Sequence record: MN850645.1
DNA: 64,000 bases
Reading direction: 5' to 3' (one strand)
From: Escherichia phage outra
Shown: positions 9,465 through 49,480 of the stretch, piece by piece
Position numbering within the stretch: the stretch's first letter is position 1
Layout: every line of letters begins with the position of its first letter
Made by a program: the position numbers and the translations under genes
Notes under the pieces: generated by a model
Seen by the model: the letters and a program-made list of their open reading frames with translations, nothing else
What the model was told of the DNA's origin: nothing
The model's database searches: none

Positions 9465-9734
9465 TTATTTCTCCTTTCTGAGTGTAATGTTAGTAACTTC
9501 TAAATCCACTTCTACCATTTCTGTATCATACGAAATACAGCTAAGTTGACCTCTTTGCGAACCGTTCAGACACATTGCTTGGTTTGTATTAACTTTAATA
9601 AACACTAAGTTTCTGAACGTATCTAAACCAGAATCTTGATAGGCAACATAATATACAAATGTATCACCTACGTCAAGTTCTCCAAAACATTTAGGTTCAT
9701 CTGATTTGTCGTCTTTGATATTAAATTTAAGCAC
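9465..9734 (-). CDS. hypothetical protein
   Basis: 89-aa ORF. Confidence 0.4.
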   Translation of the reverse strand: MLKFNIKDDKSDEPKCFGELDVGDTFVYYVAYQDSGLDTFRNLVFIKVNTNQAMCLNGSQRGQLSCISYDTEMVEVDLEVTNITLRKEK

Positions 9735-34678: not shown

Positions 34679-35851
34679 ATGACAGCACCAAAATCATGGG
34701 AACAATATAAAGAAGAATTAACACCCCTTGCTAAAAATCGCAATATTCAAATCCTGGGTTATGTTGGTGAATGGAAAGGGAACAAGACTAAACTTAAGCT
34801 ATCTTGCCCTAAACATGGAGAGTGGAACACCACGAACATTAATGATTTTAAGAAGGGACGTGGTTGTCCTATCTGTTCTGGTAAGAAGCCGTTAACATGG
34901 GAAACAGAATTGCCGATCTTGGAAGAGATAGCACAGAAGAGGGGGTATCAGGTGTTAGGGTACGTGGGAGAATGGAAAGGGAATAAAACAAAACTTGATT
35001 TGTTGTGTCATTGTGGTAATAAATGGGATACTACAAGTATTAACAATTTTAAACGTGGTAGCGGTTGTCCACAATGTAAGAGGGAGAGACAAACAATGTC
35101 CGACGATCAACATATTGCAGATTTCTTTTCTACAGGGGAATTTAAGGAAGGCACTATCTTCACCAATACAGGGAAACGTAACAAGCGTGATGCAGTATGG
35201 ATGGTTGAGTGTCCTGTTTGCTCCCATGATGAATATGTTCAAGCAGGTGTTTGTGATGGTAAATTTTACTCTGCAGGACATAACCTTAAACAAGGGTATA
35301 TTCCGTGTCGTTGTGGGAACTATCAGTATACAGAAGACCAGATCACCTATAGGGTAAAAAAGGAAGTAGAAGGGAAAGGGTATGTCTGGGTAGATTGGAT
35401 TACCAAACCCTCTTCTATAGGTAAGTTTAAATATCTTTGTCTTGTGCATGGTGAGCAGATAGGGAGTGCTCGTAATTTATTAAGCCTCGGTCAAGGTTGT
35501 CCACAGTGTGCTGGTCATAATCAACAGCAATTATATATTAATATTGTTAAAGATAATGATATTATAGTTGCTCTTAAGTTTGGTATATCTAAAGATAGCG
35601 ATAGACGATTAAACGGTCAAAATAGCCGTAATCTGTTTTTTATGGGGCGTATTTGTTTATATGATTTTAGCACAGTGAAACAATGTAGGGCTGCTGAAAG
35701 AGCTATAAAGAAAAAATTAAAAACTGGTATTTTAACGGCAAGAGAGTTGAAAGATGGTTATACAGAAACAGTAAGTGTTTCTGATTTGGAAAATCTTCAA
35801 AAAATTATTACACAATATGGTGGCAAATTAGTATACAGTAAGGAGATGTAA
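34679..35851 (+). CDS. homing-endonuclease-like protein (tandem Zn-ribbon repeats plus C-terminal T5orf172/GIY-YIG-like domain)
   Basis: Two repeats LGYVGEWKGNKTKL...C..G..W.TT.IN.FK.G.GCP.C and a third CPQCAG unit; C-terminal YINIVKDNDIIVALKFGISKDSDRR; GAGGAG RBS. Confidence 0.5.
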   Translation: MTAPKSWEQYKEELTPLAKNRNIQILGYVGEWKGNKTKLKLSCPKHGEWNTTNINDFKKGRGCPICSGKKPLTWETELPILEEIAQKRGYQVLGYVGEWKGNKTKLDLLCHCGNKWDTTSINNFKRGSGCPQCKRERQTMSDDQHIADFFSTGEFKEGTIFTNTGKRNKRDAVWMVECPVCSHDEYVQAGVCDGKFYSAGHNLKQGYIPCRCGNYQYTEDQITYRVKKEVEGKGYVWVDWITKPSSIGKFKYLCLVHGEQIGSARNLLSLGQGCPQCAGHNQQQLYINIVKDNDIIVALKFGISKDSDRRLNGQNSRNLFFMGRICLYDFSTVKQCRAAERAIKKKLKTGILTARELKDGYTETVSVSDLENLQKIITQYGGKLVYSKEM

Positions 35852-36403: not shown

Positions 36404-36599
36404 TATTTTGAAAATTTTTATTTTTATAAAAAGGGGTGTGGGTTTCATGTACGGAAATCCACCCTCTGAATAATATATCCAGAGTAAATATTATTCTGTA
36501 CTCTGTTAATAAAGTATTTAATTTGTTTGTTTGACTATGGTATCTGATCTTTAAAAGGCATACTATCTCTTAACTACTACTTATAACAGAACAGTAAAA

Positions 36600-36840
36600 T
36601 CATTTTTATAAAAAGGACAAAATTATTTAAAGTTTTTACAGATTTTTGGGTACAAATTTTGAAAATGAAAAGTTCAAGTTTGGTCAAAATTATTTAAAGT
36701 TTTTGTACGTATTTCTATCCAGATTTTGAAAATGAAAACTTCAATTTTTTAAAAATTCCCCAGTTTATTTAAAGTTTTTTTGCCTTTTTCCGTAGAAAAA
36801 TCAAAAATGAAAAGTTCAATTTCGTGTTTTTATGGGTGTG
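36600..36840. repeat. tandem direct repeats (about 60-70 bp period, 3-4 copies) in a non-coding region
   Basis: Recurring TTTTGAAAATGAAAAGTTCAA and ATTATTTAAAGTTTTT blocks near 36623, 36658-36698, 36724-36777, 36800-36830. Confidence 0.6.
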
Positions 36841-36841
36841 C

Positions 36842-36955
36842 GTATGATAATCATTTTCATTTGTAAATGAGAATCATTATCATTTAAGTATGTAAGTGAT
36901 AATCATTCTCAGTAAGAGAATGAGAATCATTAGCAAATGAGAATTTTCTCATTTA
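36842..36955. promoter_or_regulatory. cluster of AT-rich dyad operator-like sites (AATGA-n3-TCATT, Fur-box-like)
   Basis: gataatcatt, aatgagaatcattatc, gtgataatcattctc, gaatgagaatcattagc and the perfect palindrome aaatgagaattttctcattt. Confidence 0.45.
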
Positions 36956-37595
36956 GAGAATAACGCGCAGGGGCGGTGTTTGTCTCGCGCTCCCGTGTCC
37001 CCTCGCCATACAATAAGAATAGCATAACCAACAACAAAAGCAAGCGATTATTTTTATCTTTACATTTCTTTACAAATTTATTTTAGACGAGCTACCGGCG
37101 ATCAACCTTCCAACCAGTAGTGCCCTGGTATGTTAGCCCCGCCTTTACGCCGTGGGGGTGGCGCTTCCTCTTCTGTATGTAAAACAGTATAAGCCCGATC
37201 CCTGGGCTTGTCAAGATTATTTTTTGTTTTCTTGCCAGGATAGGACACCTAGCCAAAAATACATGTCGCCCCGCGCCCCTGGCGGGATCTTGCTTTCCCC
37301 GCCGCCACTGCAAGCCCATAGATAACCATTTGCGAACGTATCAAAATGATCTATTTCTTCCACCTTATGATCGCCCAGGTTGAGAACGGTTTCAACCTTT
37401 AAGCCCGTTGCGCTTGCTACCTGGTGCACCGTGCCGCCTTGCCAGCCTAATGAGTGCATGAGGTGTAAAGTAGTATTTGTCATGGTATCGCCCTTTCTTT
37501 GATGTGCGCCCTGGTTGGCGCGGTAGAAAGATAATAGCCCCTTTCCTTTATAGATAGCAAGCAAAAAAGAAATGAAAAAAGATTAAAAAAGGGGT

Positions 37596-37624
37596 TGACG
37601 TTCCTCACCTGGTAGCGTATTATT
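37596..37624 (+). promoter_or_regulatory. sigma70-like promoter (TTGACG-17-TATTAT)
   Basis: Read directly; located in a locally GC-richer island. Confidence 0.45.
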
Positions 37625-37854
37625 CATCTTGTCGAGGGGGGCGAGGCACAACGACAATAAACAAAAGGAGGGCGCAATGCAGGACGGGCAAAGGTGAGGA
37701 TCTCCACAATCCACCGTCACAATAACATTACTTATAAAAGGTTGATAACGATGATCAAGAAAGAAAACAGCTTGACGGTTGGAACGATTAACGCTATCAT
37801 TCTAGCCGTTCCATTTTGGATTGTAGTAGCGGTTATTATCTTTTAAAAATATTC

Positions 37855-37912
37855 TTGACAACGTTTTTTAATCTGATAAGATGTATCACATAGGGCGGCA
37901 ATAGTGCCGCTC
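37855..37912 (+). promoter_or_regulatory. early promoter plus stem-loop cassette (TTGACA, TAAGAT, hairpin GGGCGGCAATAGTGCCGCTC)
   Basis: Module directly precedes the RBS and ATG of 37935..38207. Confidence 0.6.
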
Positions 37913-37934
37913 ATAACAGAAGAGAGAAATAATC

Positions 37935-38207
37935 ATGGCATCATATAGCGCATCAATGATCGTAGCTGGCATCACTGGTAAACCTATGCGCGGTGGCGGA
38001 TCTTTCGCTAACATCAATATTGATGGGCGTTTATCCCTGGATGCAGCGATCACCGTGGCACGGGAAACATTTAAAAAAGAATGTAATTTCAATAAACAAG
38101 ATTATCTCGGCTTCGTTATTGAAAAAACCGCGCGCTTTGTGGATTATAAAAGCCCGAAAATGATCGACACTACACTAAAAGCGCAAGATGTAGCGTTTTT
38201 GCTTTAA
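37935..38207 (+). CDS. hypothetical early protein
   Basis: 90 aa; promoter/stem-loop/RBS module upstream. Confidence 0.5.
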   Translation: MASYSASMIVAGITGKPMRGGGSFANINIDGRLSLDAAITVARETFKKECNFNKQDYLGFVIEKTARFVDYKSPKMIDTTLKAQDVAFLL

Positions 38208-38210
38208 GGC

Positions 38211-38271
38211 TTGACACTTAAAAATAATTTTGTAATATATACCACATAAGGCGGGGAAATGGTTTCCCGCC
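38211..38271 (+). promoter_or_regulatory. early promoter plus stem-loop cassette (TTGACA-17-TAATAT, hairpin GGCGGGGAAATGGTTTCCCGCC)
   Basis: Consensus-like spacing; hairpin abuts RBS. Confidence 0.65.
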
Positions 38272-38293
38272 AAATCAAAGAAAGGGTAATGCA

Positions 38294-38656
38294 ATGAGCA
38301 AGCAAATCAATACTATCATGTTAAACCTGGTATCTTTCCGCGACGACGTGAAAAATCTTCCACGTGATGCAGTGGATGCACGGATCGAAAGCTATCGCTC
38401 ACAGATCGCAACGCTACCGCTAAAACGTGATCAACATGCCGCTAATATGATGCTTAATGCTATGCTTAAAAAGATGATTCAATGTGATCTTACCCTGGCT
38501 TATGAATATGCTGGCGATCTCTTTGTAACATATAGCAAGCCCGTACCAGGTATGAGCACAACCGAAGAATTGCATGCCTTAAATCTGCGACAAGATGCAT
38601 GGGATAACATGCGCCGTGTTATGGTATGGGTAGAAAGCGGTAAAATTTACGAATAA
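38294..38656 (+). CDS. hypothetical early protein
   Basis: 120 aa. Confidence 0.5.
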   Translation: MSKQINTIMLNLVSFRDDVKNLPRDAVDARIESYRSQIATLPLKRDQHAANMMLNAMLKKMIQCDLTLAYEYAGDLFVTYSKPVPGMSTTEELHALNLRQDAWDNMRRVMVWVESGKIYE

Positions 38657-38734
38657 AAACGGTTAACATTGCACTAAAACCTGATAAGCTATCTTAAAGC
38701 GGGAACTATTCCCGCTTACATAGGATAAAACTTT

Positions 38735-38884
38735 ATGAAACAATATGTAATGAGTATTCACACCAAAAACGGCGCTACTGTTACAACTCCGGCACGGTTT
38801 GCACTTGTAAACCGTTGCAAGAGACTAAAACGAGAGTTAAAAAATAACCGTGCAACGGGCTGCTTTAAACGCTGGGGAGGATAA
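38735..38884 (+). CDS. hypothetical small basic protein
   Basis: 49 aa hand-translated; preceded by hairpin AAGCGGGAACTATTCCCGCTT. Confidence 0.3.
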   Translation: MKQYVMSIHTKNGATVTTPARFALVNRCKRLKRELKNNRATGCFKRWGG

Positions 38885-38886
38885 TC

Positions 38887-39159
38887 TTGTTTTTTCTAAA
38901 AGTTTTTGATAATGTGATCGCTTTTGAACATGCTACAACGTTCAACCTGGCGAGATACGCTATCAGGTTTAAAGATAATGTTTATCCCCGTGCTGGTGGC
39001 GGTTACACTATCTTTAATCATCGTAACGCTCAATTAACAGATATAACGAATCCAGATCCTGGAGTGTATCGCATAGGCTGGCTACCGTCAAAAGACGCGG
39101 CAAGCATGTTTAAGGTGTGTAAACTACTAACAGAAGAGGCGAACGAACATGGGGCGTGA
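38887..39159 (+). CDS. hypothetical protein (TTG start per ORF track)
   Basis: 90 aa; GGGGAGGA RBS 6 nt upstream. Confidence 0.4.
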   Translation: MFFLKVFDNVIAFEHATTFNLARYAIRFKDNVYPRAGGGYTIFNHRNAQLTDITNPDPGVYRIGWLPSKDAASMFKVCKLLTEEANEHGA

Positions 39160-39703
39160 ATATGTGATCCAGTCATGGGTAAAGCATGACGCTAATGATC
39201 CGCGCATAATACCAGATGACATGATCGATCACATGGTAGGGTACAGCGGGGAGCAGATAGGGAATCGAGCGGCAAAGAGCAACGGGCACACAAAGACGCG
39301 ATCCGTTCGCCCTGGTTGGCTGGCAAATGGTAACGCTGACATTGCAAGCGCCGCAGATCCAAGCGATGACGCTAAAAATAATCCCTTATATAGCATTGAT
39401 CCGGCTTTTAAGGTGTTAGAAGAGTATCCCGCTAAATTAGCCGCACTAGATAAGGCATACGAAGAAAAGCGCATGGCATGGACTGTATACAACACCGCTA
39501 AAATGGTGCTAGATGCAAAATTGATTAAAGCCCAGGAGAAGATCAATAAACTTGTTGCAGTAGCGCAAGAGGAAGACCAGGACGACCAGGAGGAAGAGGA
39601 AGAAATCATGCCTACCCTGGAAGAGGAAGAGATCCAGCCATACATGCCGACGGAAGAGGAAAAAAGACAAGCCCTAAAAAATTATGAAAATTGCATTGTG
39701 TAA
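39149..39703 (+). CDS. hypothetical protein with acidic D/E-rich C-terminus
   Basis: 184 aa. Confidence 0.45.
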   Translation: MGREYVIQSWVKHDANDPRIIPDDMIDHMVGYSGEQIGNRAAKSNGHTKTRSVRPGWLANGNADIASAADPSDDAKNNPLYSIDPAFKVLEEYPAKLAALDKAYEEKRMAWTVYNTAKMVLDAKLIKAQEKINKLVAVAQEEDQDDQEEEEEIMPTLEEEEIQPYMPTEEEKRQALKNYENCIV

Positions 39704-39784
39704 GGCTTGACATATGCAAATAAGCCCCGTAATATGTACCACATAAAGCGGGGCAACGCCCCATAAAGTGAAATAAAAAATCAC

Positions 39785-39812
39785 TTGACACCTGAAATCA
39801 GTAAGCTATAAT
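39785..39812 (+). promoter_or_regulatory. consensus sigma70 promoter (TTGACA-16-TATAAT), second of a tandem pair (first TTGACA near 39707)
   Basis: Read directly. Confidence 0.6.
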
Positions 39813-39849
39813 GCTTATATAGATTGAAACATTACTAAGGAATAAAAGC

Positions 39850-40029
39850 ATGGCTATTATTGCAAAAACTGAGATCGTAGGTTTAGATTCTATCATCCTG
39901 GCATATGAGGAAGCTGTAGAAATGTATGTGGTTTCCTATGGTGATTATATCCGTGAATATAAATCTATTGATCTAGCTTTTGAATGCTATATTCGCCAGG
40001 TCAATAAAGCATATGATGATTATCGTTAA
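39850..40029 (+). CDS. hypothetical small protein
   Basis: 59 aa hand-translated downstream of consensus promoter. Confidence 0.35.
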   Translation: MAIIAKTEIVGLDSIILAYEEAVEMYVVSYGDYIREYKSIDLAFECYIRQVNKAYDDYR

Positions 40030-40124
40030 AAGTTTTAGTCTTGTGCTATTGACAACGAACGATAGTACAAGCATAATAACTTTTATCGGGAATACTCCTA
40101 ACTAATCAAAAGAGATTAAAGACT

Positions 40125-40490
40125 ATGGCTAAAAATATCAATGTTTCTGCTTATGCTACCCTGGCTAACACTGCTAAAATTGAACTATCTAGCATTGAAG
40201 CGGTACATATTAGCGCCCGTCGCTGGTTTCAAAAGTCTTATGGTAACACTTATTTCTCTTTGATGGTTGACGTTGAGATCGGCGGTAAACTGATCGAAGT
40301 CGTTAACGTTCCGTTTCACTATGGCTACGGGGATCATTTTGATACCGTTGCCCTAGAAGAGTTTAGCAAGGTTATCAACCTGGAAGGTAAAGAGTTTTCA
40401 AATTATGCCTACCTTTCCCGTTTTTGCCGTGATAATGGGATCGCTGTATACAGTCATGCAAGCGATGTTAAACGTAAAAAAGATTTATAA
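40125..40490 (+). CDS. hypothetical early protein
   Basis: 121 aa; TTGACA promoter near 40049. Confidence 0.5.
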   Translation: MAKNINVSAYATLANTAKIELSSIEAVHISARRWFQKSYGNTYFSLMVDVEIGGKLIEVVNVPFHYGYGDHFDTVALEEFSKVINLEGKEFSNYAYLSRFCRDNGIAVYSHASDVKRKKDL

Positions 40491-40610
40491 AAAGCATTGA
40501 CAGCACGAATAAAAAGCGTAAAATGTTTCATATCAGGACGGGGAACGAAGTAACACCCCGTTAAGTAGCCCAGGAGTAAGGCACACGAAAAACTCCCCTG
40601 ATAAAATAGT

Positions 40611-40670
40611 TTGACAATGGTTTCTAATAACGTATAATACTTACATCGAGAGCGGGAACACTTCCCGCCT
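40611..40670 (+). promoter_or_regulatory. early promoter plus stem-loop cassette (TTGACA-16-TATAAT, hairpin GAGCGGGAACACTTCCCGCCTC); second TTGACA/TAAAAT promoter with hairpin at about 40497-40562
   Basis: Read directly. Confidence 0.6.
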
Positions 40671-40693
40671 CACTGAAAAAAGAGATTAACATC

Positions 40694-40933
40694 ATGGCTA
40701 AATCTAAAATGTTCTTAGGTCACAAAAACAAAACTCATTGGAATGTAAGCCTTTGGATCAACAACGATGAAGGTTTTTATAATCTTGCGCGTGAATTTAT
40801 CGCAGCTAACACCAATAAGAATGACGCAGCGCGTGATATGATGTTATTTCTTGAAAGTATGGATCAAGATAAAACGCCAGACGGTTACAAGTTCAGTAAA
40901 ACCGCGATCCGTGCCGCTATGGTTGGAATGTAA
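40694..40933 (+). CDS. hypothetical early protein
   Basis: 79 aa. Confidence 0.5.
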   Translation: MAKSKMFLGHKNKTHWNVSLWINNDEGFYNLAREFIAANTNKNDAARDMMLFLESMDQDKTPDGYKFSKTAIRAAMVGM

Positions 40934-41029
40934 AGGAGACATAAAAATGAAACATCGTTCGACCTATCTCACAAAACGTTTTAGCTTAGATCATAAATTG
41001 GGCTATTACGGAAGAAATAGAAAATAATT

Positions 41030-41090
41030 TGACAACGTTTTAAATTAGTGTAAGATATATCACATAGGGCGGGAAATGGTTTCCCGCCAA
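41030..41090 (+). promoter_or_regulatory. early promoter plus stem-loop cassette (hairpin GGGCGGGAAATGGTTTCCCGCC)
   Basis: TTGACA, TAAGAT, hairpin, AAAGAAAGG RBS; near-identical to module at 38211. Confidence 0.65.
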
Positions 41091-41110
41091 ATCAAAGAAA
41101 GGTTATCATT

Positions 41111-41338
41111 ATGGCTATCATTATTGTTCGCGTATCCGGTACGGTTGGAAGCTCCCAGGTAGTAGCAGTTATCACCGAGAAGAAAGGGGATGATCTTCAC
41201 TCTTCCTTGAATAGCTGGGCGGTAGCTAACTTCGGGCAATGGTCGAGCGTTGAGTACATCGAATCCTACCAGGTGCCAACGATTAGCCTAACCGATCTAA
41301 ATGTTGATCGCTTGTTGTGCCTGGATGGATTAAACTAA
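41111..41338 (+). CDS. hypothetical early protein
   Basis: 75 aa. Confidence 0.5.
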   Translation: MAIIIVRVSGTVGSSQVVAVITEKKGDDLHSSLNSWAVANFGQWSSVEYIESYQVPTISLTDLNVDRLLCLDGLN

Positions 41339-41346
41339 AAATAATC

Positions 41347-41405
41347 TTGACAAGATAACTAAAATCAGTAAAATGTAATGCATAGGGCGGCAATAGTGCC
41401 GCTCC
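41347..41405 (+). promoter_or_regulatory. early promoter plus stem-loop cassette (hairpin GGGCGGCAATAGTGCCGCTC)
   Basis: TTGACA, TAAAAT, hairpin. Confidence 0.6.
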
Positions 41406-41425
41406 TAGTGAGAGAGATTATCAAA

Positions 41426-41638
41426 ATGGCTAATATCCGCACACTGTTAAAAAATGCAAAACAAGTTTTATTTTCTGATCACGATCATTTTAATAAAGAT
41501 ATTACAGGCGTGAAGAATATCAAAGAGGTAAAAAGTGTTATGGGTATCTATTGCAATATGAAGCGAGTAGGCACATTTGGTGATAAAGTATTATATCAGG
41601 CAGGTGACTACAATTTTACTTTGACAATTATCAACTAA
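41426..41638 (+). CDS. hypothetical early protein
   Basis: Start at Met after module. Confidence 0.45.
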   Translation: MANIRTLLKNAKQVLFSDHDHFNKDITGVKNIKEVKSVMGIYCNMKRVGTFGDKVLYQAGDYNFTLTIIN

Positions 41639-41649
41639 GGGATCACAAA

Positions 41650-41808
41650 ATGAAAACTTGCCAATGTGGTAAAAAGTCTATCTCTGGTTTAAAACGTGGC
41701 GTTGCTCTTTGTCAATATCACTATAACGCTCAAACGTGGGGTAAGCAGTGGGCGGATCAGGTGGAAGAGGCAAAGAAAGAAAATATAAAAGTAGTTGCAA
41801 AGAAATAA
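41650..41808 (+). CDS. small Cys-containing protein
   Basis: 52 aa hand-translated (MKTCQCGKK...). Confidence 0.3.
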   Translation: MKTCQCGKKSISGLKRGVALCQYHYNAQTWGKQWADQVEEAKKENIKVVAKK

Positions 41809-41879
41809 AAATAGAGTAAACTGTATTCATCAAGGCGGTGGAATAGCTCACCGCCTAACAAAGAGAAGAGGAAAACATC

Positions 41880-42050
41880 ATGATCACTTTCGCTACCCGT
41901 GAAGCCGCTCGCAACGTTGCACGTAAAGTTAATGCCGCCAACCTGGGCGCTACGCTTAAAGCCCCGGTAAAAGATGAATCAGGTAAATGGATCTTTCCTG
42001 GTCTGCGTCACGCTGATAAGCTGGGAACATTAACGTTAAAAAATAAATAA
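41880..42050 (+). CDS. hypothetical small protein
   Basis: 56 aa hand-translated; preceded by hairpin GGCGGTGGAATAGCTCACCGCC. Confidence 0.3.
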   Translation: MITFATREAARNVARKVNAANLGATLKAPVKDESGKWIFPGLRHADKLGTLTLKNK

Positions 42051-42057
42051 TATCCGC

Positions 42058-42117
42058 TTGACAGTAGCATGGTTTATAAGTAAAGTAACAACAACGGCGG
42101 GAAATGGTTTCCCGCCA
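42058..42117 (+). promoter_or_regulatory. early promoter plus stem-loop cassette (hairpin GGCGGGAAATGGTTTCCCGCC)
   Basis: TTGACA plus hairpin abutting RBS. Confidence 0.55.
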
Positions 42118-42136
42118 TCAATAAAGAGATAAGATT

Positions 42137-42496
42137 ATGAAATCAGTAAAAGCAATCAAAACTTACATTGTATCGGCTATTTCTTTTGAAGGTACTACAA
42201 CCGAAAAAGAAAAAATCACCGAACTGATGCGCCGTTTTAATTCTGAATACTGGTATCCCGATAATCAAAAACGTTACAATTATAACGTGATCAAGGCGAT
42301 AGCCTCATGGTTACAAGGTTTACCGTCAGACATTAACATTGCCTTTGATTATAACGAGATTGATCATTTATTAATTGAATGGAAGTACATAAAAGAAACA
42401 AGCAAAGAAACAACCGTTACCCGTGAGCGGGAAAATTATTGGTTATATATTGCAAGCATGATCGTAATCCTGGCAAAACAGCATAACGTGGCGTAA
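42137..42496 (+). CDS. hypothetical early protein
   Basis: 119 aa. Confidence 0.5.
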   Translation: MKSVKAIKTYIVSAISFEGTTTEKEKITELMRRFNSEYWYPDNQKRYNYNVIKAIASWLQGLPSDINIAFDYNEIDHLLIEWKYIKETSKETTVTRERENYWLYIASMIVILAKQHNVA

Positions 42497-42511
42497 TTAA
42501 GAGGAAGAAAC

Positions 42512-42649
42512 ATGAACGCATCACAGCAGATCGAAAAATTCAACCGCAGCAAGGCGCGTAAAGATTGGAACGAAGAGATCACCAAAAAAGGCGACAAGCG
42601 GAACAAAACAAAAAGAGATCGCAGCACAAAAAGATACTGGAACGAATAA
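42512..42649 (+). CDS. small highly basic (K/R-rich) protein
   Basis: 45 aa hand-translated; GAGGAAG RBS; terminator follows. Confidence 0.3.
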   Translation: MNASQQIEKFNRSKARKDWNEEITKKGDKRNKTKRDRSTKRYWNE

Positions 42650-42650
42650 C

Positions 42651-42680
42651 AAAAAAGGGCGCAATAAGCGCCCTTTTAGC
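42651..42680 (+). terminator. Rho-independent terminator
   Basis: aagggcgcaataagcgccctttt. Confidence 0.7.
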
Positions 42681-42768
42681 TTATATAGGGGCTTGTTACC
42701 CATAGGCAATGGTAACGCCAGGGCAAGCCTATAAATCAACGTTAGACGGCTTTACAGGAGCTTTAAAA

Positions 42769-42951
42769 ATGAGATTAGAAGAAATAAGCAAGGCACTAGA
42801 CCAGGAGCAAAGGTTATGCGCCCGATATCGTGATCAATATGGCTTCATAACTAGCGGCGTGATCCTGGGGATGGAAGGCAATAAGATTTTTATTGACACG
42901 TTGAAAAACGTTGTATATAGTGACAATATAATCTCAATAAAACATATATGA
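42769..42951 (+). CDS. hypothetical protein
   Basis: Start at Met with CAGGAG RBS. Confidence 0.4.
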   Translation: MRLEEISKALDQEQRLCARYRDQYGFITSGVILGMEGNKIFIDTLKNVVYSDNIISIKHI

Positions 42952-42959
42952 GGCAAGAA

Positions 42960-43361
42960 ATGAAAAACTTATTGATCGCTGGTTTAATCTCTTTTGGCAT
43001 GGTTGGAACATCTAGCGCGGCGATATCCTCCACAGTAGCAGAATTAAGCGCCGTTGATGCAATGGAAAACGTCATGCTTATTAATAATGCGATCCCCGAT
43101 GAAATCATGGAGGATTCACACATGATCGCTTATGGTGCTGTTACACAACTAACGGCAAAAATAGATAAATCTATTGTTAATGGCTTAAATGAAGATGTAC
43201 CATGTGAAATTATTACCAGTGTGCTGACTACTCAAAATTTTACGCCGTGGTTAAAAAGTATTCAAAAAGTACACAGTACAGCCGCAGATCGTAGCAATGA
43301 AAAACTAGTGTCAGCACTTGCAACGTATACCCTAGCAAAATGCACTGAGATAAAAGATTGA
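42960..43361 (+). CDS. secreted protein (signal peptide)
   Basis: MKNLLIAGLISFGMVGTSSAAIS leader. Confidence 0.45.
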   Translation: MKNLLIAGLISFGMVGTSSAAISSTVAELSAVDAMENVMLINNAIPDEIMEDSHMIAYGAVTQLTAKIDKSIVNGLNEDVPCEIITSVLTTQNFTPWLKSIQKVHSTAADRSNEKLVSALATYTLAKCTEIKD

Positions 43362-43408
43362 CAACATAGAAAGCACGTTATAAGATACACACAACAAAGG
43401 AGAACTAC

Positions 43409-43711
43409 ATGAACGGCATAGCTAAAACGTTTTTTCTTTTTTCTGGTGTAAATGATCCATCAATAAAAGTCGATAGTGTAAAAGAAAAAAATACTATCAC
43501 CGCTAAATTGTTTCAAGATGAAACAAATAACGTGCTAATCATTAATCTTAAAGAAGTAACGAAAGGTTATTATACTATTGCTTACCATGCGATCTATCAT
43601 GCTGGTACTGGTGAGGAAGTGCAAACAAGCAACAACGAAAGCGCGGCGCTACCTGGTGATCTGGTGCTGGGCGTTATCAGTTTAATTGTCAATGATTTTT
43701 TTAAGGAGTAA
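43409..43711 (+). CDS. hypothetical protein
   Basis: 100 aa. Confidence 0.45.
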   Translation: MNGIAKTFFLFSGVNDPSIKVDSVKEKNTITAKLFQDETNNVLIINLKEVTKGYYTIAYHAIYHAGTGEEVQTSNNESAALPGDLVLGVISLIVNDFFKE

Positions 43712-44040
43712 AACCATGCCCTATTTACATTTATTTTTCGGTATCTTATTAACAGGATCTTTTTTCTTCTGTATGCTTGTTTCTATTGTAAACCACGTTT
43801 TAAGACATTAAGGAAACAGCATGAAAATTATTCCCGTACAATATAGCGTAATAAATCCAGCATATGAGGAAGGAAGGAAAACAAGCATGGCTTTATGTTG
43901 TATTGCTACTATAGCCATGTTGTTATACATTGTGTTTTAATAGGTTTTATAGTTGTACGCTTTAAAGGCTTGACAATTTTTTGTTATGCTTTAAACTATA
44001 TCTTGAAAACGGCAAAGGCCGCAAACAAAAGGGTAAAATT

Positions 44041-44364
44041 ATGAAATCTGTGATCGGTGTTTATTTGGATAACTCTGATTTTTTCTATCATCGCGCGCGT
44101 TTACTTGATGCTATTGAAATGATAGAATCAGGCTTTAAAGAGTATCGCCTTGCACATGATGACCTGGAAGCATTACAGGGCAATAGTGTTTTTACATTGC
44201 AAGCGAAAGCACTATGCAAAAGCCGGATCGAGATTGCAAGTAAAAAGATAGAGCGCGGCATGTCCTGGTTGCGCACCGCAGAAATCAACATGGGGCAATG
44301 GTACGGCGAAAACTTAGAAAATAAACATGCTTTTGTCAATGTAGAAAATATTGAAGATTATTGA
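44041..44364 (+). CDS. hypothetical early protein
   Basis: TTGACA near 43970; start at Met after short hairpin. Confidence 0.45.
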   Translation: MKSVIGVYLDNSDFFYHRARLLDAIEMIESGFKEYRLAHDDLEALQGNSVFTLQAKALCKSRIEIASKKIERGMSWLRTAEINMGQWYGENLENKHAFVNVENIEDY

Positions 44365-44427
44365 TTGACAGCACACCGAACGGGGAGTATATTGTATCTC
44401 ATAGAGCGGGGAAATGGTTTCCCCGCC
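44365..44427 (+). promoter_or_regulatory. early promoter plus stem-loop cassette (TTGACA-17-TATATT, hairpin GAGCGGGGAAATGGTTTCCCCGCC)
   Basis: Read directly. Confidence 0.6.
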
Positions 44428-44446
44428 TTAAAAGAAGAGATAAGCT

Positions 44447-44731
44447 ATGAAGATCACAAAAGCACTTTCCAACTATGCAGCACGTCGCGGCTTATGTTTA
44501 ACCGTTGAAAACCTGGGGAAAGAAGATTTTTTGTGCTTTTGGGAGCTTGAGAATGATAATGAGTGGATCTTCTCTTATTCTATCTGCGAAGATCAAAACG
44601 GTTGTTTATTAGCCTGGCGCGGTAATATCTATCTACCGGAAGAAATCAAAGAAGAATTACCAGGCACGATCATGACTGAGAAACAGCTTAAGGAAGTGAT
44701 CAATTTTGTAGGGCAAAACATTAAAAAATAA
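44447..44731 (+). CDS. hypothetical early protein
   Basis: 94 aa. Confidence 0.5.
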   Translation: MKITKALSNYAARRGLCLTVENLGKEDFLCFWELENDNEWIFSYSICEDQNGCLLAWRGNIYLPEEIKEELPGTIMTEKQLKEVINFVGQNIKK

Positions 44732-44732
44732 T

Positions 44733-44790
44733 TTGACACTAGGCAAACAACGTAGTAAAGTTTATCACATAGGGCGGCAATAGTGCCGCT
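44733..44790 (+). promoter_or_regulatory. early promoter plus stem-loop cassette (hairpin GGGCGGCAATAGTGCCGCTC)
   Basis: The stretch from the hairpin to the RBS is almost identical to the module at 37855. Confidence 0.6.
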
Positions 44791-44812
44791 CATAACAGAA
44801 GAGAAACAAATC

Positions 44813-44983
44813 ATGATCCCAACTATGTTTTATGTATCGCGCAAAGGTCACAATATTTTTTGGTCTGAAGATTTAAATGAAGCCATGACGTTTGCCCGTG
44901 ATCGTGTCGCTATCGGTGGCGTTAACATTACCGTAACCGATGAAAATGGCATTGAATACTATAACGGCGACGATGAAGAGTAA
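44813..44983 (+). CDS. hypothetical small protein
   Basis: Start at Met after module. Confidence 0.4.
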   Translation: MIPTMFYVSRKGHNIFWSEDLNEAMTFARDRVAIGGVNITVTDENGIEYYNGDDEE

Positions 44984-45030
44984 TTAATGAGGCGGGGGAA
45001 TATTCCCCGCCGTCAATAAAGAGGTAAATC

Positions 45031-45300
45031 ATGAAAATATCATTGGACGTTGCAATCAAGGCCATCGAATCCGGTTACACCCTGGTAAAAGATGATAAGG
45101 CTAAAATAGTGCATCATGTTAACAAGGAAACAGGCGAAAGCATGATCACATATAAAGCCGCCTACTTTCTCCAATCAGTAGCAGATCCGCGCGTACAACG
45201 CCAGGTTACGGCGGCTATTGCTAAAAAAGTATGTGCTTTACAGGGTACAAGTTTTAACGAGATCGCCCCGTGTTTTGACTGGTCGAGCTTGAAAAAATAG
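45031..45300 (+). CDS. hypothetical protein
   Basis: 89 aa; preceded by hairpin GGCGGGGGAATATTCCCCGCC. Confidence 0.45.
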   Translation: MKISLDVAIKAIESGYTLVKDDKAKIVHHVNKETGESMITYKAAYFLQSVADPRVQRQVTAAIAKKVCALQGTSFNEIAPCFDWSSLKK

Positions 45301-45496
45301 TTTGACAATATGCGGTTATCTGGTAAAGTGTACGACATAGGGCGGGGCAATAAGGCAACGCCCACTAATGAGGGTAAAATCATGTTAGAGAAAATTTTCA
45401 CGGTTGTAGTAGTGGGCCTGGCGTTATCGGTTGGAGTGATTGCAACTATGGCTAACATGATCCTATCTTCCCACGGTATTGGATAAGGTGAATCAA

Positions 45497-45712
45497 ATGA
45501 TCACGAATAAGACAGGTAAAACAGAATTTTTACGCGGCTTGCAAATTGGTAAACCTGAAATATGGCATTGCACTAAATCCGCGCATAATGAGATGAAAGA
45601 CTTTACCGCCACGTTACAACGTGTTAAAATATCTATTACGCAGAAAAAAGCCTTATTAGTAGTAGAAAACGAGATACCGCAAACCATTATTATTGTCGAG
45701 CGTACAGCATGA
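45497..45712 (+). CDS. hypothetical protein
   Basis: Start at first ATG; a 34-aa hydrophobic micro-ORF lies upstream (about 45382-45486) after a TTGACA promoter at 45302. Confidence 0.4.
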   Translation: MITNKTGKTEFLRGLQIGKPEIWHCTKSAHNEMKDFTATLQRVKISITQKKALLVVENEIPQTIIIVERTA

Positions 45713-46095
45713 AAACTGAAATCATTATTGAAATCATCAACGGTTATAAAGAAGCCTTTATTTTTGCTGAATCAGCCAGGGATCATGAAGGTAATTTTGT
45801 AAACGACATGACTGACTATGATTTTTCAGATCAAGCCCATCAGCGGATCATTCATGACGTAGCGGCTTATTGTGATGCCAATGATGCTGCTATCTCTGAG
45901 GCAATGAGCGACGGCGCAACAGCAAACCAGATCGGGAATGACTTACATTTCACCCGTAACGGTCACGGCGTAGGCTTTTGGGATCGCCCTGAAATATACA
46001 CTACTAACACCGCCAACCGCCTAACAAATGCAGCTAAATTAATGCCATCGGTGCATGCTTACATTGGTGAAGATAATTTGATTTATATTGAATAA
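45709..46095 (+). CDS. hypothetical protein
   Basis: 128 aa; ATGA overlap with upstream gene. Confidence 0.45.
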   Translation: MKTEIIIEIINGYKEAFIFAESARDHEGNFVNDMTDYDFSDQAHQRIIHDVAAYCDANDAAISEAMSDGATANQIGNDLHFTRNGHGVGFWDRPEIYTTNTANRLTNAAKLMPSVHAYIGEDNLIYIE

Positions 46096-46101
46096 AAAGT
46101 A

Positions 46102-46160
46102 TTGACACCGATCCCCGATATGTTATTATTTACCACGTAGGCGGGAAATGGTTTCCCGCC
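46102..46160 (+). promoter_or_regulatory. early promoter plus stem-loop cassette (hairpin GGCGGGAAATGGTTTCCCGCC)
   Basis: TTGACA, TATTAT-like -10, hairpin. Confidence 0.6.
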
Positions 46161-46184
46161 AGGTAATCAAAAAAGGTAAATACT

Positions 46185-46574
46185 ATGCGCAACCTGGTTT
46201 CTGTTTCTAACGTTGAAAAATTTCAATCCTTGCAGGGTATCGTTAACAACGTAGCGCCTTTTCTAGTCAATGGCTTGATTGCAAAGATGAAAAATAAACA
46301 TCATGCAGCATGGTCTGCTTACTGCTTTGATAATGATGAAAAAGCGGCTGAAATGATGTTAAATATGCTGTTAGATAGTGTAGAATCATCTTTACCGGAA
46401 AACATCGCAGAAGAGATCACCTATCGTTATAATATGGCGATCACCTATCAGGAGGTTGCGCAATTCAATATGATGGACGATGACGAACAACAGGATCAGG
46501 AAATGTTTTGGGAATATGCAGATCGTCAATCGGCTTTTGATGAAAAGTTAGCGATGTATTATAACGAATATTAA
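46185..46574 (+). CDS. hypothetical acidic protein
   Basis: 129 aa. Confidence 0.5.
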   Translation: MRNLVSVSNVEKFQSLQGIVNNVAPFLVNGLIAKMKNKHHAAWSAYCFDNDEKAAEMMLNMLLDSVESSLPENIAEEITYRYNMAITYQEVAQFNMMDDDEQQDQEMFWEYADRQSAFDEKLAMYYNEY

Positions 46575-46587
46575 TACACGGTAAAAG

Positions 46588-46618
46588 AAAGGGGCGCACT
46601 AAGCGCCCTTTTTTGTAT
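46588..46618 (+). terminator. Rho-independent terminator
   Basis: ggggcgcactaagcgcccctttttt. Confidence 0.7.
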
Positions 46619-46959
46619 TCTTTTTCACGATGGAAGTAACACGTAAAGAATAAACGTAAGAGGTGGCGTAAAACAGCCTAAAACCGATTATAACCGCTTA
46701 AACAAGGTAGTAATGACTAATCACCTTGCCAGGATGAAAAAGCTGTTATAAAGCTATCTAGAGCGTTTAAAGCACATAGGAAATAATTTGCTTTTTATCT
46801 TGCCTTTTATCCTGCTTTTGATTATTATTATGGAACGGGCGGCACCTGGGGACAGGGGAAGATAATCACCGGAAGATCCCGCTATATATTAATAGCTAAT
46901 ACCTATCAAACAACAAAACATCAAAGGAATAAACTATCAAATCTTTACAATCCTACCTA

Positions 46960-47019
46960 TTGACACAGGATCACCCTTATACTAATATGTATCCCGTAGG
47001 GCGGGAAATGGTTTCCCGC
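46960..47019 (+). promoter_or_regulatory. early promoter plus stem-loop cassette (hairpin GGGCGGGAAATGGTTTCCCGC)
   Basis: TTGACA, TATACT/TAATAT, hairpin. Confidence 0.6.
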
Positions 47020-47038
47020 TTGATATAGGAATCATACC

Positions 47039-47272
47039 ATGATCGAACAAATTAAAAGCACTACACCAAATGTTAACGGCAATGTTTCACACTTTATCGG
47101 TGATAATGAAAGGGGCACACCATACGCCGCCGTAACCGTGCAACCTAACGGGGATTATTGGTTTACCGTGTACGGATCATACTCTTTCGGACGCCCGGCA
47201 CATGATAAGATCTTGCAAGCGGTTAAACCTGCGGGGAAGAATATCACAGTAGAAAAATTCTATGAAAAATAA
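47039..47272 (+). CDS. hypothetical protein
   Basis: 77 aa. Confidence 0.5.
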   Translation: MIEQIKSTTPNVNGNVSHFIGDNERGTPYAAVTVQPNGDYWFTVYGSYSFGRPAHDKILQAVKPAGKNITVEKFYEK

Positions 47273-47347
47273 CTTGCTTTATAGCCTCTGTTAATTTATA
47301 GTTATCGTGTAGGGCAAACAATTTTAAACGGTAAACGAGGAATCACC

Positions 47348-47731
47348 ATGAGCAATATCATCAACCTGGCAGCGACTGTAAACGGTAAAGATTTTAACGG
47401 CGCTGTAGATCATGATCCTATGTGGTGCTTATCAGTGTTTAAAGGTGACTTGGTTGAAGTTAGAACAACCGAAGGTTATAGCGACGATTATAAATGCGAG
47501 ATTCATTTACACAACTGGTACACGGGTAAAACTTATGCGCTGAATCATGCGTTTATCGGCAAGGTTGAATATAGGGAAATGATCGACGAAGAAACGGGGC
47601 AAGATTTTAGCGATTATGTTTATATTCGTTCCGAGACATTAGCCGAACGTTTGATCGAGAAAATGAAAGCAAAAAATAAAATTAATTTAGCTCATTGGAT
47701 TGATATAACAAACGATCCTGCTTATCAGTAA
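47348..47731 (+). CDS. hypothetical protein
   Basis: 127 aa; followed by terminator. Confidence 0.5.
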   Translation: MSNIINLAATVNGKDFNGAVDHDPMWCLSVFKGDLVEVRTTEGYSDDYKCEIHLHNWYTGKTYALNHAFIGKVEYREMIDEETGQDFSDYVYIRSETLAERLIEKMKAKNKINLAHWIDITNDPAYQ

Positions 47732-47744
47732 ATAACATTTCAAA

Positions 47745-47773
47745 CAAGGGCGCTTATTGCGCCCTTTCTTTTT
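47745..47773 (+). terminator. Rho-independent terminator
   Basis: aagggcgcttattgcgcccttt plus T-tract. Confidence 0.7.
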
Positions 47774-47977
47774 ACCTAAATAAAGATGATAGCTTTTACC
47801 TATCAAAAACGTTCACCGAAAAAAGTGAATAGATCGCGGTATCGAGCTAATCAGGGAGCAGATGAACAACCATACCATGAAGATCATAAGGCGCTTACAA
47901 CGGCTTTTAGACCGCTTATTTTTAATTTCTTCATGCAACTATCTGGCAAAAACAGCCTTTTTCTTGTCTTTCCTCTT

Positions 47978-48052
47978 AAATGATAATCATTCTTATTTAT
48001 AGCTGATTATTTATGCAATAAACTGCATAATGCAATAATGATAATCATTCTT
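47978..48052. promoter_or_regulatory. two Fur-box-like dyads (AATGATAATCATTCTT), 55 bp apart
   Basis: Read directly. Confidence 0.4.
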
Positions 48053-48906
48053 AACTTATGACCATCTAACCTATAAAATAATAAGCTATCTAACTAAATT
48101 AAAACTAATTATCTCACCTTTATTTATAACTTACTGTTACTATCTCATTGATAACCTTATATTAAACAACAATAACTAATATAAATCATTACTAAGCTAA
48201 ATATAATCTATCTAACCTTTAAAACTATAACTATAATCTATCGAATTGTTGCACAAAGTAACTATTAAATTGTTAGTAACATTGCTAAATAATTAATATC
48301 CTATCTATTTATGATCTAATCTTTACCTTCCTATTTATTACCTAAATAACCATTTCATATAGTAATTATTTCATACAATAACTATAACAAGAAACATAAT
48401 TCGCAAGCGTATCATTAGCAGCCTATGCCGGACACATAGGCGGCTAATAATAACGCAACTACACACCCCACATAATAACCATCACCGATAGTTATTATTT
48501 GTGCTTATGTAGCTTGCAACAATTGCAAGCGCAACAATATACTAAGGTATATTGTATCCCTTACATTGTTGCGGTGCGTTATTATTAGCTAATGTTTAGA
48601 ACATTGGCTATAATATAAGCTGCATATAATAAGCTATTCAATAATAAACATCGTGAATAATGACATTGATGATCATAATGCGCCACCCTCCAGGGGGCGC
48701 TATGTGAACACAAAGAAATCTTTCTTATCAAGAAAATATTATCACTATTGCGCAAAATTATTTACATCTGAATAGATGATTTTTCATACTATTATTGTTA
48801 TTTGTTGAGCATAGTTATAGCCTATTTGTTGAGCCTACTTTCTTAAAAGCGCAATAAATCAGAATTATCTTGATTTTTAGTGCGTTTTATAGTATAGAAA
48901 ATATGC

Positions 48907-48923
48907 AAATGATAATCATTATC
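48907..48923. promoter_or_regulatory. near-perfect Fur-box-like site (AAATGATAATCATTATC) just downstream of a TTGATT-N17-TATAGA promoter-like element
   Basis: 15-nt identity with positions 5-19 of the E. coli Fur consensus GATAATGATAATCATTATC. Confidence 0.45.
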
Positions 48924-49480
48924 AGCTATCTTCCACGGGTAGCACTATTTCACGCCAGATCATTTCATTTGGCAAGGTGTATATAGATGTTTAGACTTGC
49001 CAAGTTATTGATTTACTTAGAATTTATCTATTTTGTTGTGAGTAGTACCTTTCTTGCTTAGAAAATAATCAAAAGTCTTATAAGTCATTGAATGATAATA
49101 CAAATGATAATTATTCTCATTGATATTTGAGGGGGACGGTCGGCAGAAATCGGGGGGTGCTGAAAATCGCGTTAAGCACCTCTCGCAAGCGAGCAGTATT
49201 TTGCGGCAAGTTATTGATATTATTGGCTTTACGCTTATGAAAAGGGGGTGTGTCGAAATAAAGCGGGTATACCGGAAAATTTTTGTGGCATAGATATTTA
49301 TTTGTCTATATTATGTACAAAGGGGTGTGTTAAAAATATTAGGTATATATAGAATAATTGATAGGGAAATCCTATACTAATCCCTCCATTAATGATGTTT
49401 CTATGTTACTGTTCTTGTAATAGATGAAAAGACGCTGTATGATGTGTGGCATGAAACGTAAACTTATAAAGGAGTCTGAT

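Follow-up and report, generated by a model that had tools for sequence, protein, structure and literature searches.

We analysed a 64,000-nucleotide stretch of the genome of Escherichia phage outra (sequence record MN850645.1), referred to below as the window, in which two large non-coding regions (NCR1 and NCR2) carry clusters of palindromes that resemble binding sites of the host regulator Fur. The window belongs to a Justusliebigvirus genome, i.e. to a virulent, phi92-like myovirus of the subfamily Stephanstirmvirinae. It is oriented as the reverse complement of approximately 47.1-111.1 kb of the record of Escherichia phage vB_EcoM_ESCO8 (ESCO8). Between positions 36000 and 38000 it shows 100% identity to ESCO8 and 97-98% identity to many Justusliebigvirus genomes. 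The gene cluster that precedes NCR1 finishes with an AAA+ ATPase gene, a homing-endonuclease-like gene and a NADAR gene, and approximately 10 kb of small open reading frames (ORFs), the early block, separate NCR1 from NCR2. Searches of the window with Rfam (gathering thresholds) and ARAGORN found no RNA gene, and the NCRs are therefore not explained by known RNA genes. The coordinates of all features are given in Table 1.

Table 1. Features of NCR1, the early block and NCR2. Positions refer to the window; scores are those of the 19-bp Fur weight matrix, with the start of the scored 19-mer in brackets where a site has several.
Feature	Position	Strand	Sequence	Remarks
NCR1	36404-37934			Large non-coding region; 3′ of the rightward gene cluster
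Iteron-like direct repeats (three)	36602-36822	+		67-75 bp; directly left of the Fur array; repeat family D1, TRF period 67
Fur site S1	36840-36864		GCGTATGATAATCATTTTCATTTGT	17.9 bits (36840), 16.4 bits (36846); two overlapping 19-mers 6 bp apart
Fur site S2	36863-36887		GTAAATGAGAATCATTATCATTTAA	21.9 bits (36863), 16.7 bits (36869); F-F-x-R-R type palindrome; 3 consensus mismatches
Fur site S3	36892-36916		GTAAGTGATAATCATTCTCAGTAAG	18.1 bits (36892), 12.1 bits (36898)
Fur site S4	36916-36934		GAGAATGAGAATCATTAGC	21.3 bits; 3 consensus mismatches
Variant site S5	36936-36955		AAATGAGAATTTTCTCATTT	Perfect 20-bp palindrome; half-sites one base closer; <12 bits
GC-rich element	36957-37005		CGGTGTTTGTCTC (invariant core)	Abuts the last Fur palindrome
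Best sigma-70-like promoter in NCR1 (predicted)	37186-37214	-	TTGACA-17-TATACT	11/12; points to the GC-rich element and the Fur array
Early block, small ORFs	37595-47766	+		Near-consensus sigma-70 promoters; from the ORF list and the inny annotation; bracketed by Fur sites
Intrinsic terminator	47746-47766			Closes the early block
NCR2	47732-49423			Large non-coding region; 3′ of the last early gene (gp30.8-like) and its terminator
Fur site S6	47976-48000			16.4 bits (47976), 14.3 bits (47982); ~210 bp past the early-block terminator
Fur site S7	48034-48052			20.9 bits
Direct terminal repeat (DTR)	48832-49174	+		343 bp; one copy in the circularised representation; physical left genome end = 48832
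Fur site S8	48905-48923		TGATAATCATTATCA (core)	24.5 bits, best of the genome; perfect 7-1-7 core; 2 consensus mismatches
Fur site S9	49094-49124			Overlapping registers of 12.2, 17.4 and 15.7 bits (49094, 49100, 49106)

A preliminary description of this DNA had recorded the palindromes as Fur-box-like dyads, and every dyad sequence that it quoted is present where it had been placed. Four of the five dyads that it counted at 36842-36955 are canonical sites (S1 to S4), while the fifth, S5, is indeed a perfect palindrome but turned out to be a spacing variant with a low matrix score. The identity of the dyad at 48907-48923 to the Fur consensus is real, and the site starting at 48905 (S8) matches over 16 consecutive bases rather than the 15 that had been given. 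The observation that the sites flank the early cassette array on both sides was correct; two of the four right-hand sites fall inside the DTR.

The sites were scored with a symmetric 19-bp Fur weight matrix, which was refined from 14 promoter regions of E. coli K-12 (NC_000913.3): yoeA, gpmA, ryhB, sodA, fecI, fhuF, cirA, sufA, ydiE, fhuA, nohD, fepA-fes, fepD-entS and fepB-entC. These genes are Fur-controlled or Fur-bound, and Table 4 of Chen et al. (2007) (PMC2189734) served as a guide to their choice. In leave-one-out scoring, the E. coli training sites reached 11.1-21.9 bits (n = 14). The phage sites scored 16.4-24.5 bits (eight starts) and thus equal or exceed genuine E. coli sites. Of the 11 sites with at least 16 bits in the 64-kb window, 10 are located inside NCR1 or NCR2; whole-window shuffles gave 0.6 positions at this threshold. 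The consensus GATAATGATAATCATTATC was matched with up to three mismatches at five positions of the window, all of them inside NCR1 or NCR2, compared with 0.08 expected, and this number was reached in none of 100 dinucleotide shuffles. A control matched for AT content, in which each NCR alone was subjected to 1000 dinucleotide shuffles, never reached the observed counts at thresholds from 10 to 16 bits, so that the check by weight matrix against AT-matched shuffles suggested in the preliminary description places the sites far above chance. The rest of the genome (85 kb) contains one further site with at least 16 bits; in the 149-kb genome, 10 of 12 such sites fall in ~3 kb of non-coding DNA. 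The further site outside the window, which is of the Fur type and scores 21.5 bits, covers the start codon of the phage glutaredoxin gene (ESCO8 record 36797-36815), which lies downstream of nrdA/nrdB with several ORFs between, four dTDP-sugar genes among them. This site may be due to chance, since whole-window shuffles reach 21 bits.

The recurrent unit of the clusters is a palindrome of 21-25 bp, (G)YAAATGAKAATCATTMTCATTTR, and its centre coincides with the midpoint of two Fur 19-mers that are offset by 6 bp, which by symmetry makes every palindrome a double site. Register pairs with this offset start at 36840/36846, 36863/36869, 36892/36898, 47976/47982 and 49100/49106, and the units of the NCR1 array follow each other at spacings of 23, 29 and 24 bp. 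The inner 7-1-7 core, TGAKAAT-N-ATTMTCA, is of the Fur type, and the native E. coli Fur sites of ryhB, gpmA and fhuA share the ATCATTCTCATT form. With this 6-bp offset, a pair of 19-bp boxes is known to accommodate two or three dimers of Fur, which sit on opposite sides of the DNA helix. Clusters with 6-bp spacing are found in footprinted E. coli Fur promoters, and the F-F-x-R-R arrangement was the tightest Fur binder among the oligonucleotides of Table 1 of the same study, with an apparent Kd of 0.78 nM and three bound dimers (PMC2189734). The phage sites resemble E. coli operator clusters such as those of iucA, fepD-entS, fhuF and ryhB (PMC2189734) in the 19-bp motif and in the 6-bp F-F-x-R-R overlap, and their scores are comparable or higher. 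In contrast to the E. coli clusters, which overlap the promoter that they repress, the phage sites are tied to no recognisable promoter; they also form arrays of up to five double sites at 23-29 bp spacing and lie partly in a terminal repeat.

To the left and right of the palindromes, NCR1 has a conserved order. Iteron-like repeats, Fur palindromes, the GC-rich element and then the blocks CTTTAC..TTTACAAA..CTACCGGCGATC form a module. In the close relatives inny, phiWec187 and phi92, S1 is kept with substitutions that preserve its score (GCGTATGATAATCATTTTC in the window, GTTAATGAGAATCATTTTC in inny and GCGGATGATAATCATTCTC in phi92), and S6 is present in the same three phages. Syntenic arrays were found in the Phapecoctavirus Mt1B1_P17 (16.2, 22.1 and 11.9 bits) and in Klebsiella phage KP2025 (17.2/20.1, 16.4, 16.3 and 13.3 bits). 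At the position orthologous to S5, Mt1B1_P17 has a canonical site of 22.1 bits and IMG/VR locus L113 a 21-bp version. Simulation of neutral divergence at the observed ~22% predicted the survival of ~0.6 sites with at least 16 bits, compared with two observed in Mt1B1_P17 (P ~0.1) and three in KP2025 (P ~0.01-0.02), which taken alone is moderate evidence of conservation. The placement of the module in the Vequintavirinae provides stronger evidence than this simulation. Salmonella phage SSE121 (Seunavirus) has one perfect palindrome and Cronobacter phage CR9 (Certrevirus) has four, in both cases directly upstream of the shared GC-rich element and downstream of iteron-like repeats. Relative to the last Fur site, the placement of the GC-rich element is unchanged in Mt1B1_P17, KP2025, SSE121 and CR9. 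In all four phages repeats precede the Fur sites at the matching position, and in SSE121 and CR9 the sequence of these repeats is unrelated to that in the window. The iteron-like repeats could serve as an origin or be bound, as an array, by a phage protein.

Further to the right, the non-coding blocks at 36957-37200 hardly vary between Justusliebigvirus, Phapecoctavirus and a Klebsiella phage, and a 44-bp piece (37057-37100) retains 88.6% identity in Certrevirus and other Vequintavirinae-like phages. A structured RNA on the minus strand of 36950-37180 was considered and rejected: its fold did not exceed shuffled sequences in stability (z = 0.67), and an alignment of four genomes gave just three compensatory pairs. 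Both NCRs are also found with 95-97% identity in four records named 'Campylobacter phage' (A150, A145, C3 and A110a; MG065639, MG065645, MG065656 and MG065689), which is likely to reflect mislabelling or contamination.

The right-hand sites S8 (48905) and S9 (49100) lie inside the direct terminal repeat, which is a new finding. Direct terminal repeats are stated to form the ends of Stephanstirmvirinae genomes (PMC12695924). The record of phi92 begins at window position 48832, and its annotated repeats DTR-L (1-343) and DTR-R (148270-148612) map here with 97% identity. At least seven other records begin at this base; 48832 is likewise the start or the end of the records of VEcB, W22, UAB_1 (also annotated), PHB05, PD114 and PD06 and the end of the BME3 record. 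At the homologous place, Mt1B1_P17 has a terminal duplication of 328 bp. For BME3, a repeat of 342 bp was determined with PhageTerm (PMC12210895). Judged from these records, 48832-49174 is the terminal repeat. A 148-bp end overlap in the record of phiWec187 (LC739536.1), which corresponds to window positions 43696-43843, was considered as an alternative terminus and set aside as a probable assembly overlap, because phi92, UAB_1, BME3 (PhageTerm), Mt1B1_P17 and several other records agree on 48832. The annotated repeat of BME3 (PP239276.1, 146957-147298) maps to 48905-49246 and is shifted by 73 bp from the phi92 repeat.

S8 starts 74 nt inside the left boundary of the DTR and S9 ends 50 nt inside the right one. 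The equivalent of S8 in phi92 is found at position 74 of the annotated 343-bp DTR-L, and the counterpart of S9 scores 20.5 and 15.7 bits at record positions 269 and 275. In Mt1B1_P17 the distances of the sites from the repeat boundaries are 71 and 54 nt compared with 74 and 50 nt in phi92; the distances are thus conserved between genera. On the physical map of phi92, the early block forms the right-terminal segment and the NCR1 array is located 11.5-11.6 kb from the right end, which is equivalent to 7.8% of the genome.

Some further elements were observed in and around the DTR. IHF-like cores (WATCAANNNNTTR) within a repeated GCAAGTTATTGAT are present at 49001-49013, in the middle of the DTR between S8 and S9, and at 49207-49219, 33 bp beyond it; judged by eye, the IHF-like core match is kept in the repeat of Mt1B1_P17. 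To the left of the DTR boundary, ~300 bp at 48055-48400 have an AT content of about 80% and hardly any G on the plus strand, and nested inverted repeats at 48443-48589 include a perfect 15-bp arm pair 117 nt apart. Together they could be a packaging recognition region. The motif AAAGGGGTGTG occurs at 36430, i.e. at the beginning of NCR1, and at 49242 and 49319, after the terminal repeat and before the first left-end gene, and nowhere else in the 64 kb; its enrichment is marginal, as three matches were reached in five of 100 shuffles.

A scan for sigma-70 promoters showed that no Fur site overlaps a promoter scoring at least 10/12. The promoter-like matches over the Fur array reach 9/12 only and are built from the boxes themselves, and none better than 9/12 was found in NCR2. 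Rightward promoters with 10/12 consensus matches are located at 37595-37623, 37772-37800 and 37855-37882, so that the near-consensus early promoters are 640-900 bp away from the Fur array. The TTGACA hexamer of the leftward promoter at 37214-37186 is conserved in Mt1B1_P17 and KP2025. The left gene cluster ends on one side of the main array and the leftward unit probably ends on the other, so that the array appears to sit between convergent transcription units and would not be in an operator position.

A distant BLAST search with NCR1 unexpectedly matched T5-like phages through the Fur array itself. The palindromes of the T5-like phage Gostya9 are alike, and one 25-mer is identical to a site of Mt1B1_P17; after them come repeats of 23 bp whose half-sites are weaker, and DnaA boxes adjoin. 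In T5 (NC_005859.1), the palindrome region covers 9549-9720 of the record, and three sites at 9653-9712 score 19.3, 19.3 and 21.1 bits; they fall within the annotated 'injection stop signal' (iss), at ~7.9% of the genome. A location of the T5 array at the repeat boundary was ruled out, because the array is 500-670 bp inside. The T5 iss region belongs to the left terminal repeat; as in phi92, it is a large NCR at the inner edge of a terminal, first-expressed gene block and contains palindromes with ~23-bp periodicity. What distinguishes the T5-like region are its DnaA boxes (observed in Gostya9), its 10-kb repeat and the A1/A2 genes, none of which is found in the window phage. Phages of the phi92 type are not known to transfer their DNA in two steps. 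The fraction of T5 DNA that enters in the first step is 7.9% (Davison preprint), and its agreement with the 7.8% of phi92 may be a coincidence. The same preprint lists eight DnaA boxes per T5-like phage, names the elements palindromes and DRD repeats, invokes DnaA and does not mention Fur. The oriC-like reading of the T5 region does not transfer to the window phage, since NCR1 and NCR2 are without DnaA boxes.

A second parallel is found at the ends of lambdoid genomes. In lambda (NC_001416.1, 48447-48471), TGATAATCATTATCA is present at 48452-48466, with 18.8 and 18.2 bits, 31 nt from the right cohesive end, and in the cryptic prophage DLP12, nohD (formerly nohB) is preceded by a strong Fur site that lies 32 bp to the left of the cosN sequence GGGCGGCGACCT. 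In gel shift experiments, Fur bound an oligonucleotide with the site predicted upstream of nohA (PMC2189734), the equivalent gene in the cryptic prophage Qin. At lambdoid cos, a strong Fur box is thus placed a few tens of bases from the end or packaging cut, as S8 and S9 are placed near the repeat boundaries. Lambda is different in having a single site, cohesive ends and a temperate life cycle, whereas the window phage has direct terminal repeats and is virulent. In a literature search outside of which much of the subscription literature fell, we found no publication naming both Fur and cosQ and no prior account of Fur boxes in phi92-like phages, T5-like phages or lambda cos; Fur boxes reported for phages were found only upstream of prophage cargo such as sitABCD (PMC6969025).

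In the IMG/VR database, an exact 21-mer of the palindrome was present at no fewer than 120 loci, at least 19 of which have three or more sites within 400 bp. Four unrelated viral contigs (L035, L070, L103 and L095) carry arrays of 4-5 near-perfect Fur palindromes at 22-30 bp spacing. Several contigs (L021, L038 and L072) end exactly at a Fur palindrome, which could mean true termini or assembly breaks at repeats.

Matrix scores, the 6-bp architecture, conservation across genera and recurrence in unrelated phages all support the proposal of the preliminary description that the dyads are Fur boxes, and given their equivalence to validated sites it is highly probable that host Fur binds them. A tblastn search of the genome gave no Fur or Zur homologue (with approximate query sequences), and the T5 pre-early proteins, including A1 and A2, have no homologue in the phage. 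Next to the array, an ORF of 88 amino acids (phi92 gp224; 37217-37483, minus strand) shows 100% amino acid identity in Mt1B1_P17, a member of another genus. It has no Pfam domain, and the palindrome-bearing loci of KP2025, SSE121, CR9 and T5 lack it. This comparison of candidate phage binders covered Fur/Zur, the T5 pre-early proteins and the 88-residue ORF, the other small early ORFs not being taken one by one. The simplest factor common to these phages is a host protein. A different protein with Fur-box specificity, either a phage-encoded dimer or a host protein of the Fur family such as Zur, would be in line with the high conservation of the 88-residue ORF beside the array and with the outer arms AAATG...CATTT, which are more regular than the Fur consensus requires and resemble the outer arms of a Zur box. 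The Zur core, TGTTATA-N-TATAACA, differs from the Fur-type inner core of the phage sites, and the native E. coli sites mentioned above carry the same form of the palindrome. Together with the lack of Fur, Zur or A1/A2 homologues in this genome and the absence of the 88-residue ORF from several phages with the module, this makes another binder very unlikely, and the phage-encoded dimeric regulator offered in the preliminary description was not borne out.

We propose, tentatively and at somewhat less than even confidence, that the palindromes are authentic high-affinity Fe2+-Fur sites at which Fur serves as an architectural, iron-gated host factor on cis-acting phage DNA. Fe2+-loaded host Fur would bind the palindromes, each as a double site, at three positions: the five-site array in the conserved non-coding module at the inner border of the terminal early block, the pair S6/S7 just past the last early terminator, and one site 50-75 bp inside each boundary of the 343-bp DTR. 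Fur would thereby be loaded in cis on sites of DNA processing, namely the genome ends or packaging junction and a candidate origin or boundary module, and its occupancy, hence the DNA-processing steps, would depend on the iron status of the host. The idea of a cis-acting role arose because the sites overlap no strong or conserved promoter. The architectural role is preferred because promoters are avoided, the array is locked to the module, the distances in the DTR are fixed and the parallels in T5 and lambda are found at sites of DNA transactions. IHF is an abundant host accessory factor at lambda cosB and at replication origins, and the logic proposed here is alike in that a host DNA-binding protein is recruited to cis-acting phage DNA; unlike IHF, Fur would add a metal-dependent switch.

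Several points speak against such an architectural role. For all of these phages function was deduced from sequence only, and the choice of training sites was seeded with the consensus, which makes the matrix partly circular. The main array, 11-12 kb from the terminus, is not directly explained by a role at the ends, and we know of no system in which Fur acts as a packaging or replication cofactor. The only features that make NCR1 a candidate origin are the iteron-like repeats and an AAA+ ATPase with weak helicase-loader-like matches, encoded two genes upstream of NCR1, and neither NCR1 nor NCR2 contains a DnaA box (with up to one mismatch). In addition, the promoter scan recognises promoters of the sigma-70 type only and is blind to phage-specific middle or late promoters and to weak ones, and phi92 has a promoter-like TTGACA-17-TAGACT (10/12) between S8 and S9. 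This match is weaker in the window (TTGGCA) and has no counterpart by eye in Mt1B1_P17. With regard to the genes before NCR1, the homing-endonuclease-like gene (34679-35851) adjoins that of the ATPase; it lies two genes before NCR1 and encodes CapR and T5orf172 domains (PHROG 'endonuclease').

The promoter-like site of phi92 is also among the arguments for a more classical explanation, in which the sites are iron-responsive operators: Fe2+-Fur would repress or roadblock transcription units in or through the NCRs, and early or middle expression would be tuned to iron. The candidate targets would be the leftward unit from 37214-37186, read-through transcription that leaves the early block and, downstream of the DTR, the first genes of the left end. 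The sites have scores of operator quality and bracket the early block, and a roadblock or insulator geometry fits, since S6/S7 closely follow the early terminator and the NCR1 array lies directly after the point where the leftward unit is presumed to end. Moreover, the gene products of the phage include an iron-dependent class I ribonucleotide reductase and a glutaredoxin, and the 21.5-bit site covers the start codon of the glutaredoxin gene. We nevertheless regard operators as unlikely. No box covers the -35 or -10 region of a strong promoter, the early promoters are far from the array, the promoter-like site in the DTR is weaker in the window and was not found by eye in Mt1B1_P17, four or five double sites exceed the need of simple repression, and T5 and lambda carry these boxes at sites of DNA transactions and not of transcription. 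For the specific claim that the sites are operators governing the switch into and out of early transcription, the anatomy gave no support: no strong promoter is overlapped, the array appears to lie between convergent units and two sites are in the DTR. A titration of Fur, also raised in the preliminary description, fares somewhat differently. Multicopy Fur boxes derepress the Fur regulon, which is the principle of the Fur titration assay, and this assay selected fragments of nohA and fhuF (PMC2189734). With ~9 double sites per replicating genome, the phage DNA might act as a sponge for Fur, so that iron uptake and RyhB-dependent iron sparing are derepressed and iron becomes available for ribonucleotide reductase; the many very strong sites without an attached promoter and the presence of NrdA and NrdB in the phage would agree with this. 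A sponge requires number and not position, whereas the array is fixed beside the conserved GC-rich element across two subfamilies, S8 and S9 keep their distances to the repeat boundaries and the copy number falls to one in SSE121. T5, too, keeps its array, yet A1 is annotated for degradation of host DNA and shutoff of host expression, so that little would be gained from derepression. Some titration must occur if Fur binds; it does not account for the fixed positions, the single site in SSE121 or the array of T5, and we consider a sponge distinctly unlikely. Finally, the dyads could lack a function altogether and represent chance AT-rich dyads or a locally duplicated repeat that resembles a Fur box. 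The NCRs are indeed AT-rich (30-38% GC), and the sites within each cluster are alike, so that some of them arose by duplication. On the other hand, none of the 1000 AT-matched shuffles reached the observed counts, the position is conserved across two subfamilies while the flanks diverge, and arrays are found independently in T5-like phages and in many IMG/VR contigs, which leaves this explanation extremely improbable.

Fur boxes belong to the best-understood operators of bacteria and are generally seen as switches at the promoters of iron genes; in virulent phages, we find them as conserved arrays with no promoter attached. A wider version of the architectural proposal, in which Fur is a required, iron-gated cofactor in several unrelated families of coliphages, with the DTR and the border or origin module in phi92/rV5-like phages, an iss that is partly a Fur array in T5 and cosQ in lambda, is a long shot; if it were true, phage DNA entry, replication or packaging would be coupled to host iron. 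Even if Fur were merely titrated, this would still be a new strategy of host manipulation. The molecular nature of the T5 injection stop signal has been sought for more than 50 years, and if Fur binds and matters, it would be a concrete candidate for a component of this signal. It would then also represent a new class of host factor in phage DNA metabolism and would link infection to host iron, with relevance to phage therapy in iron-limited tissues.

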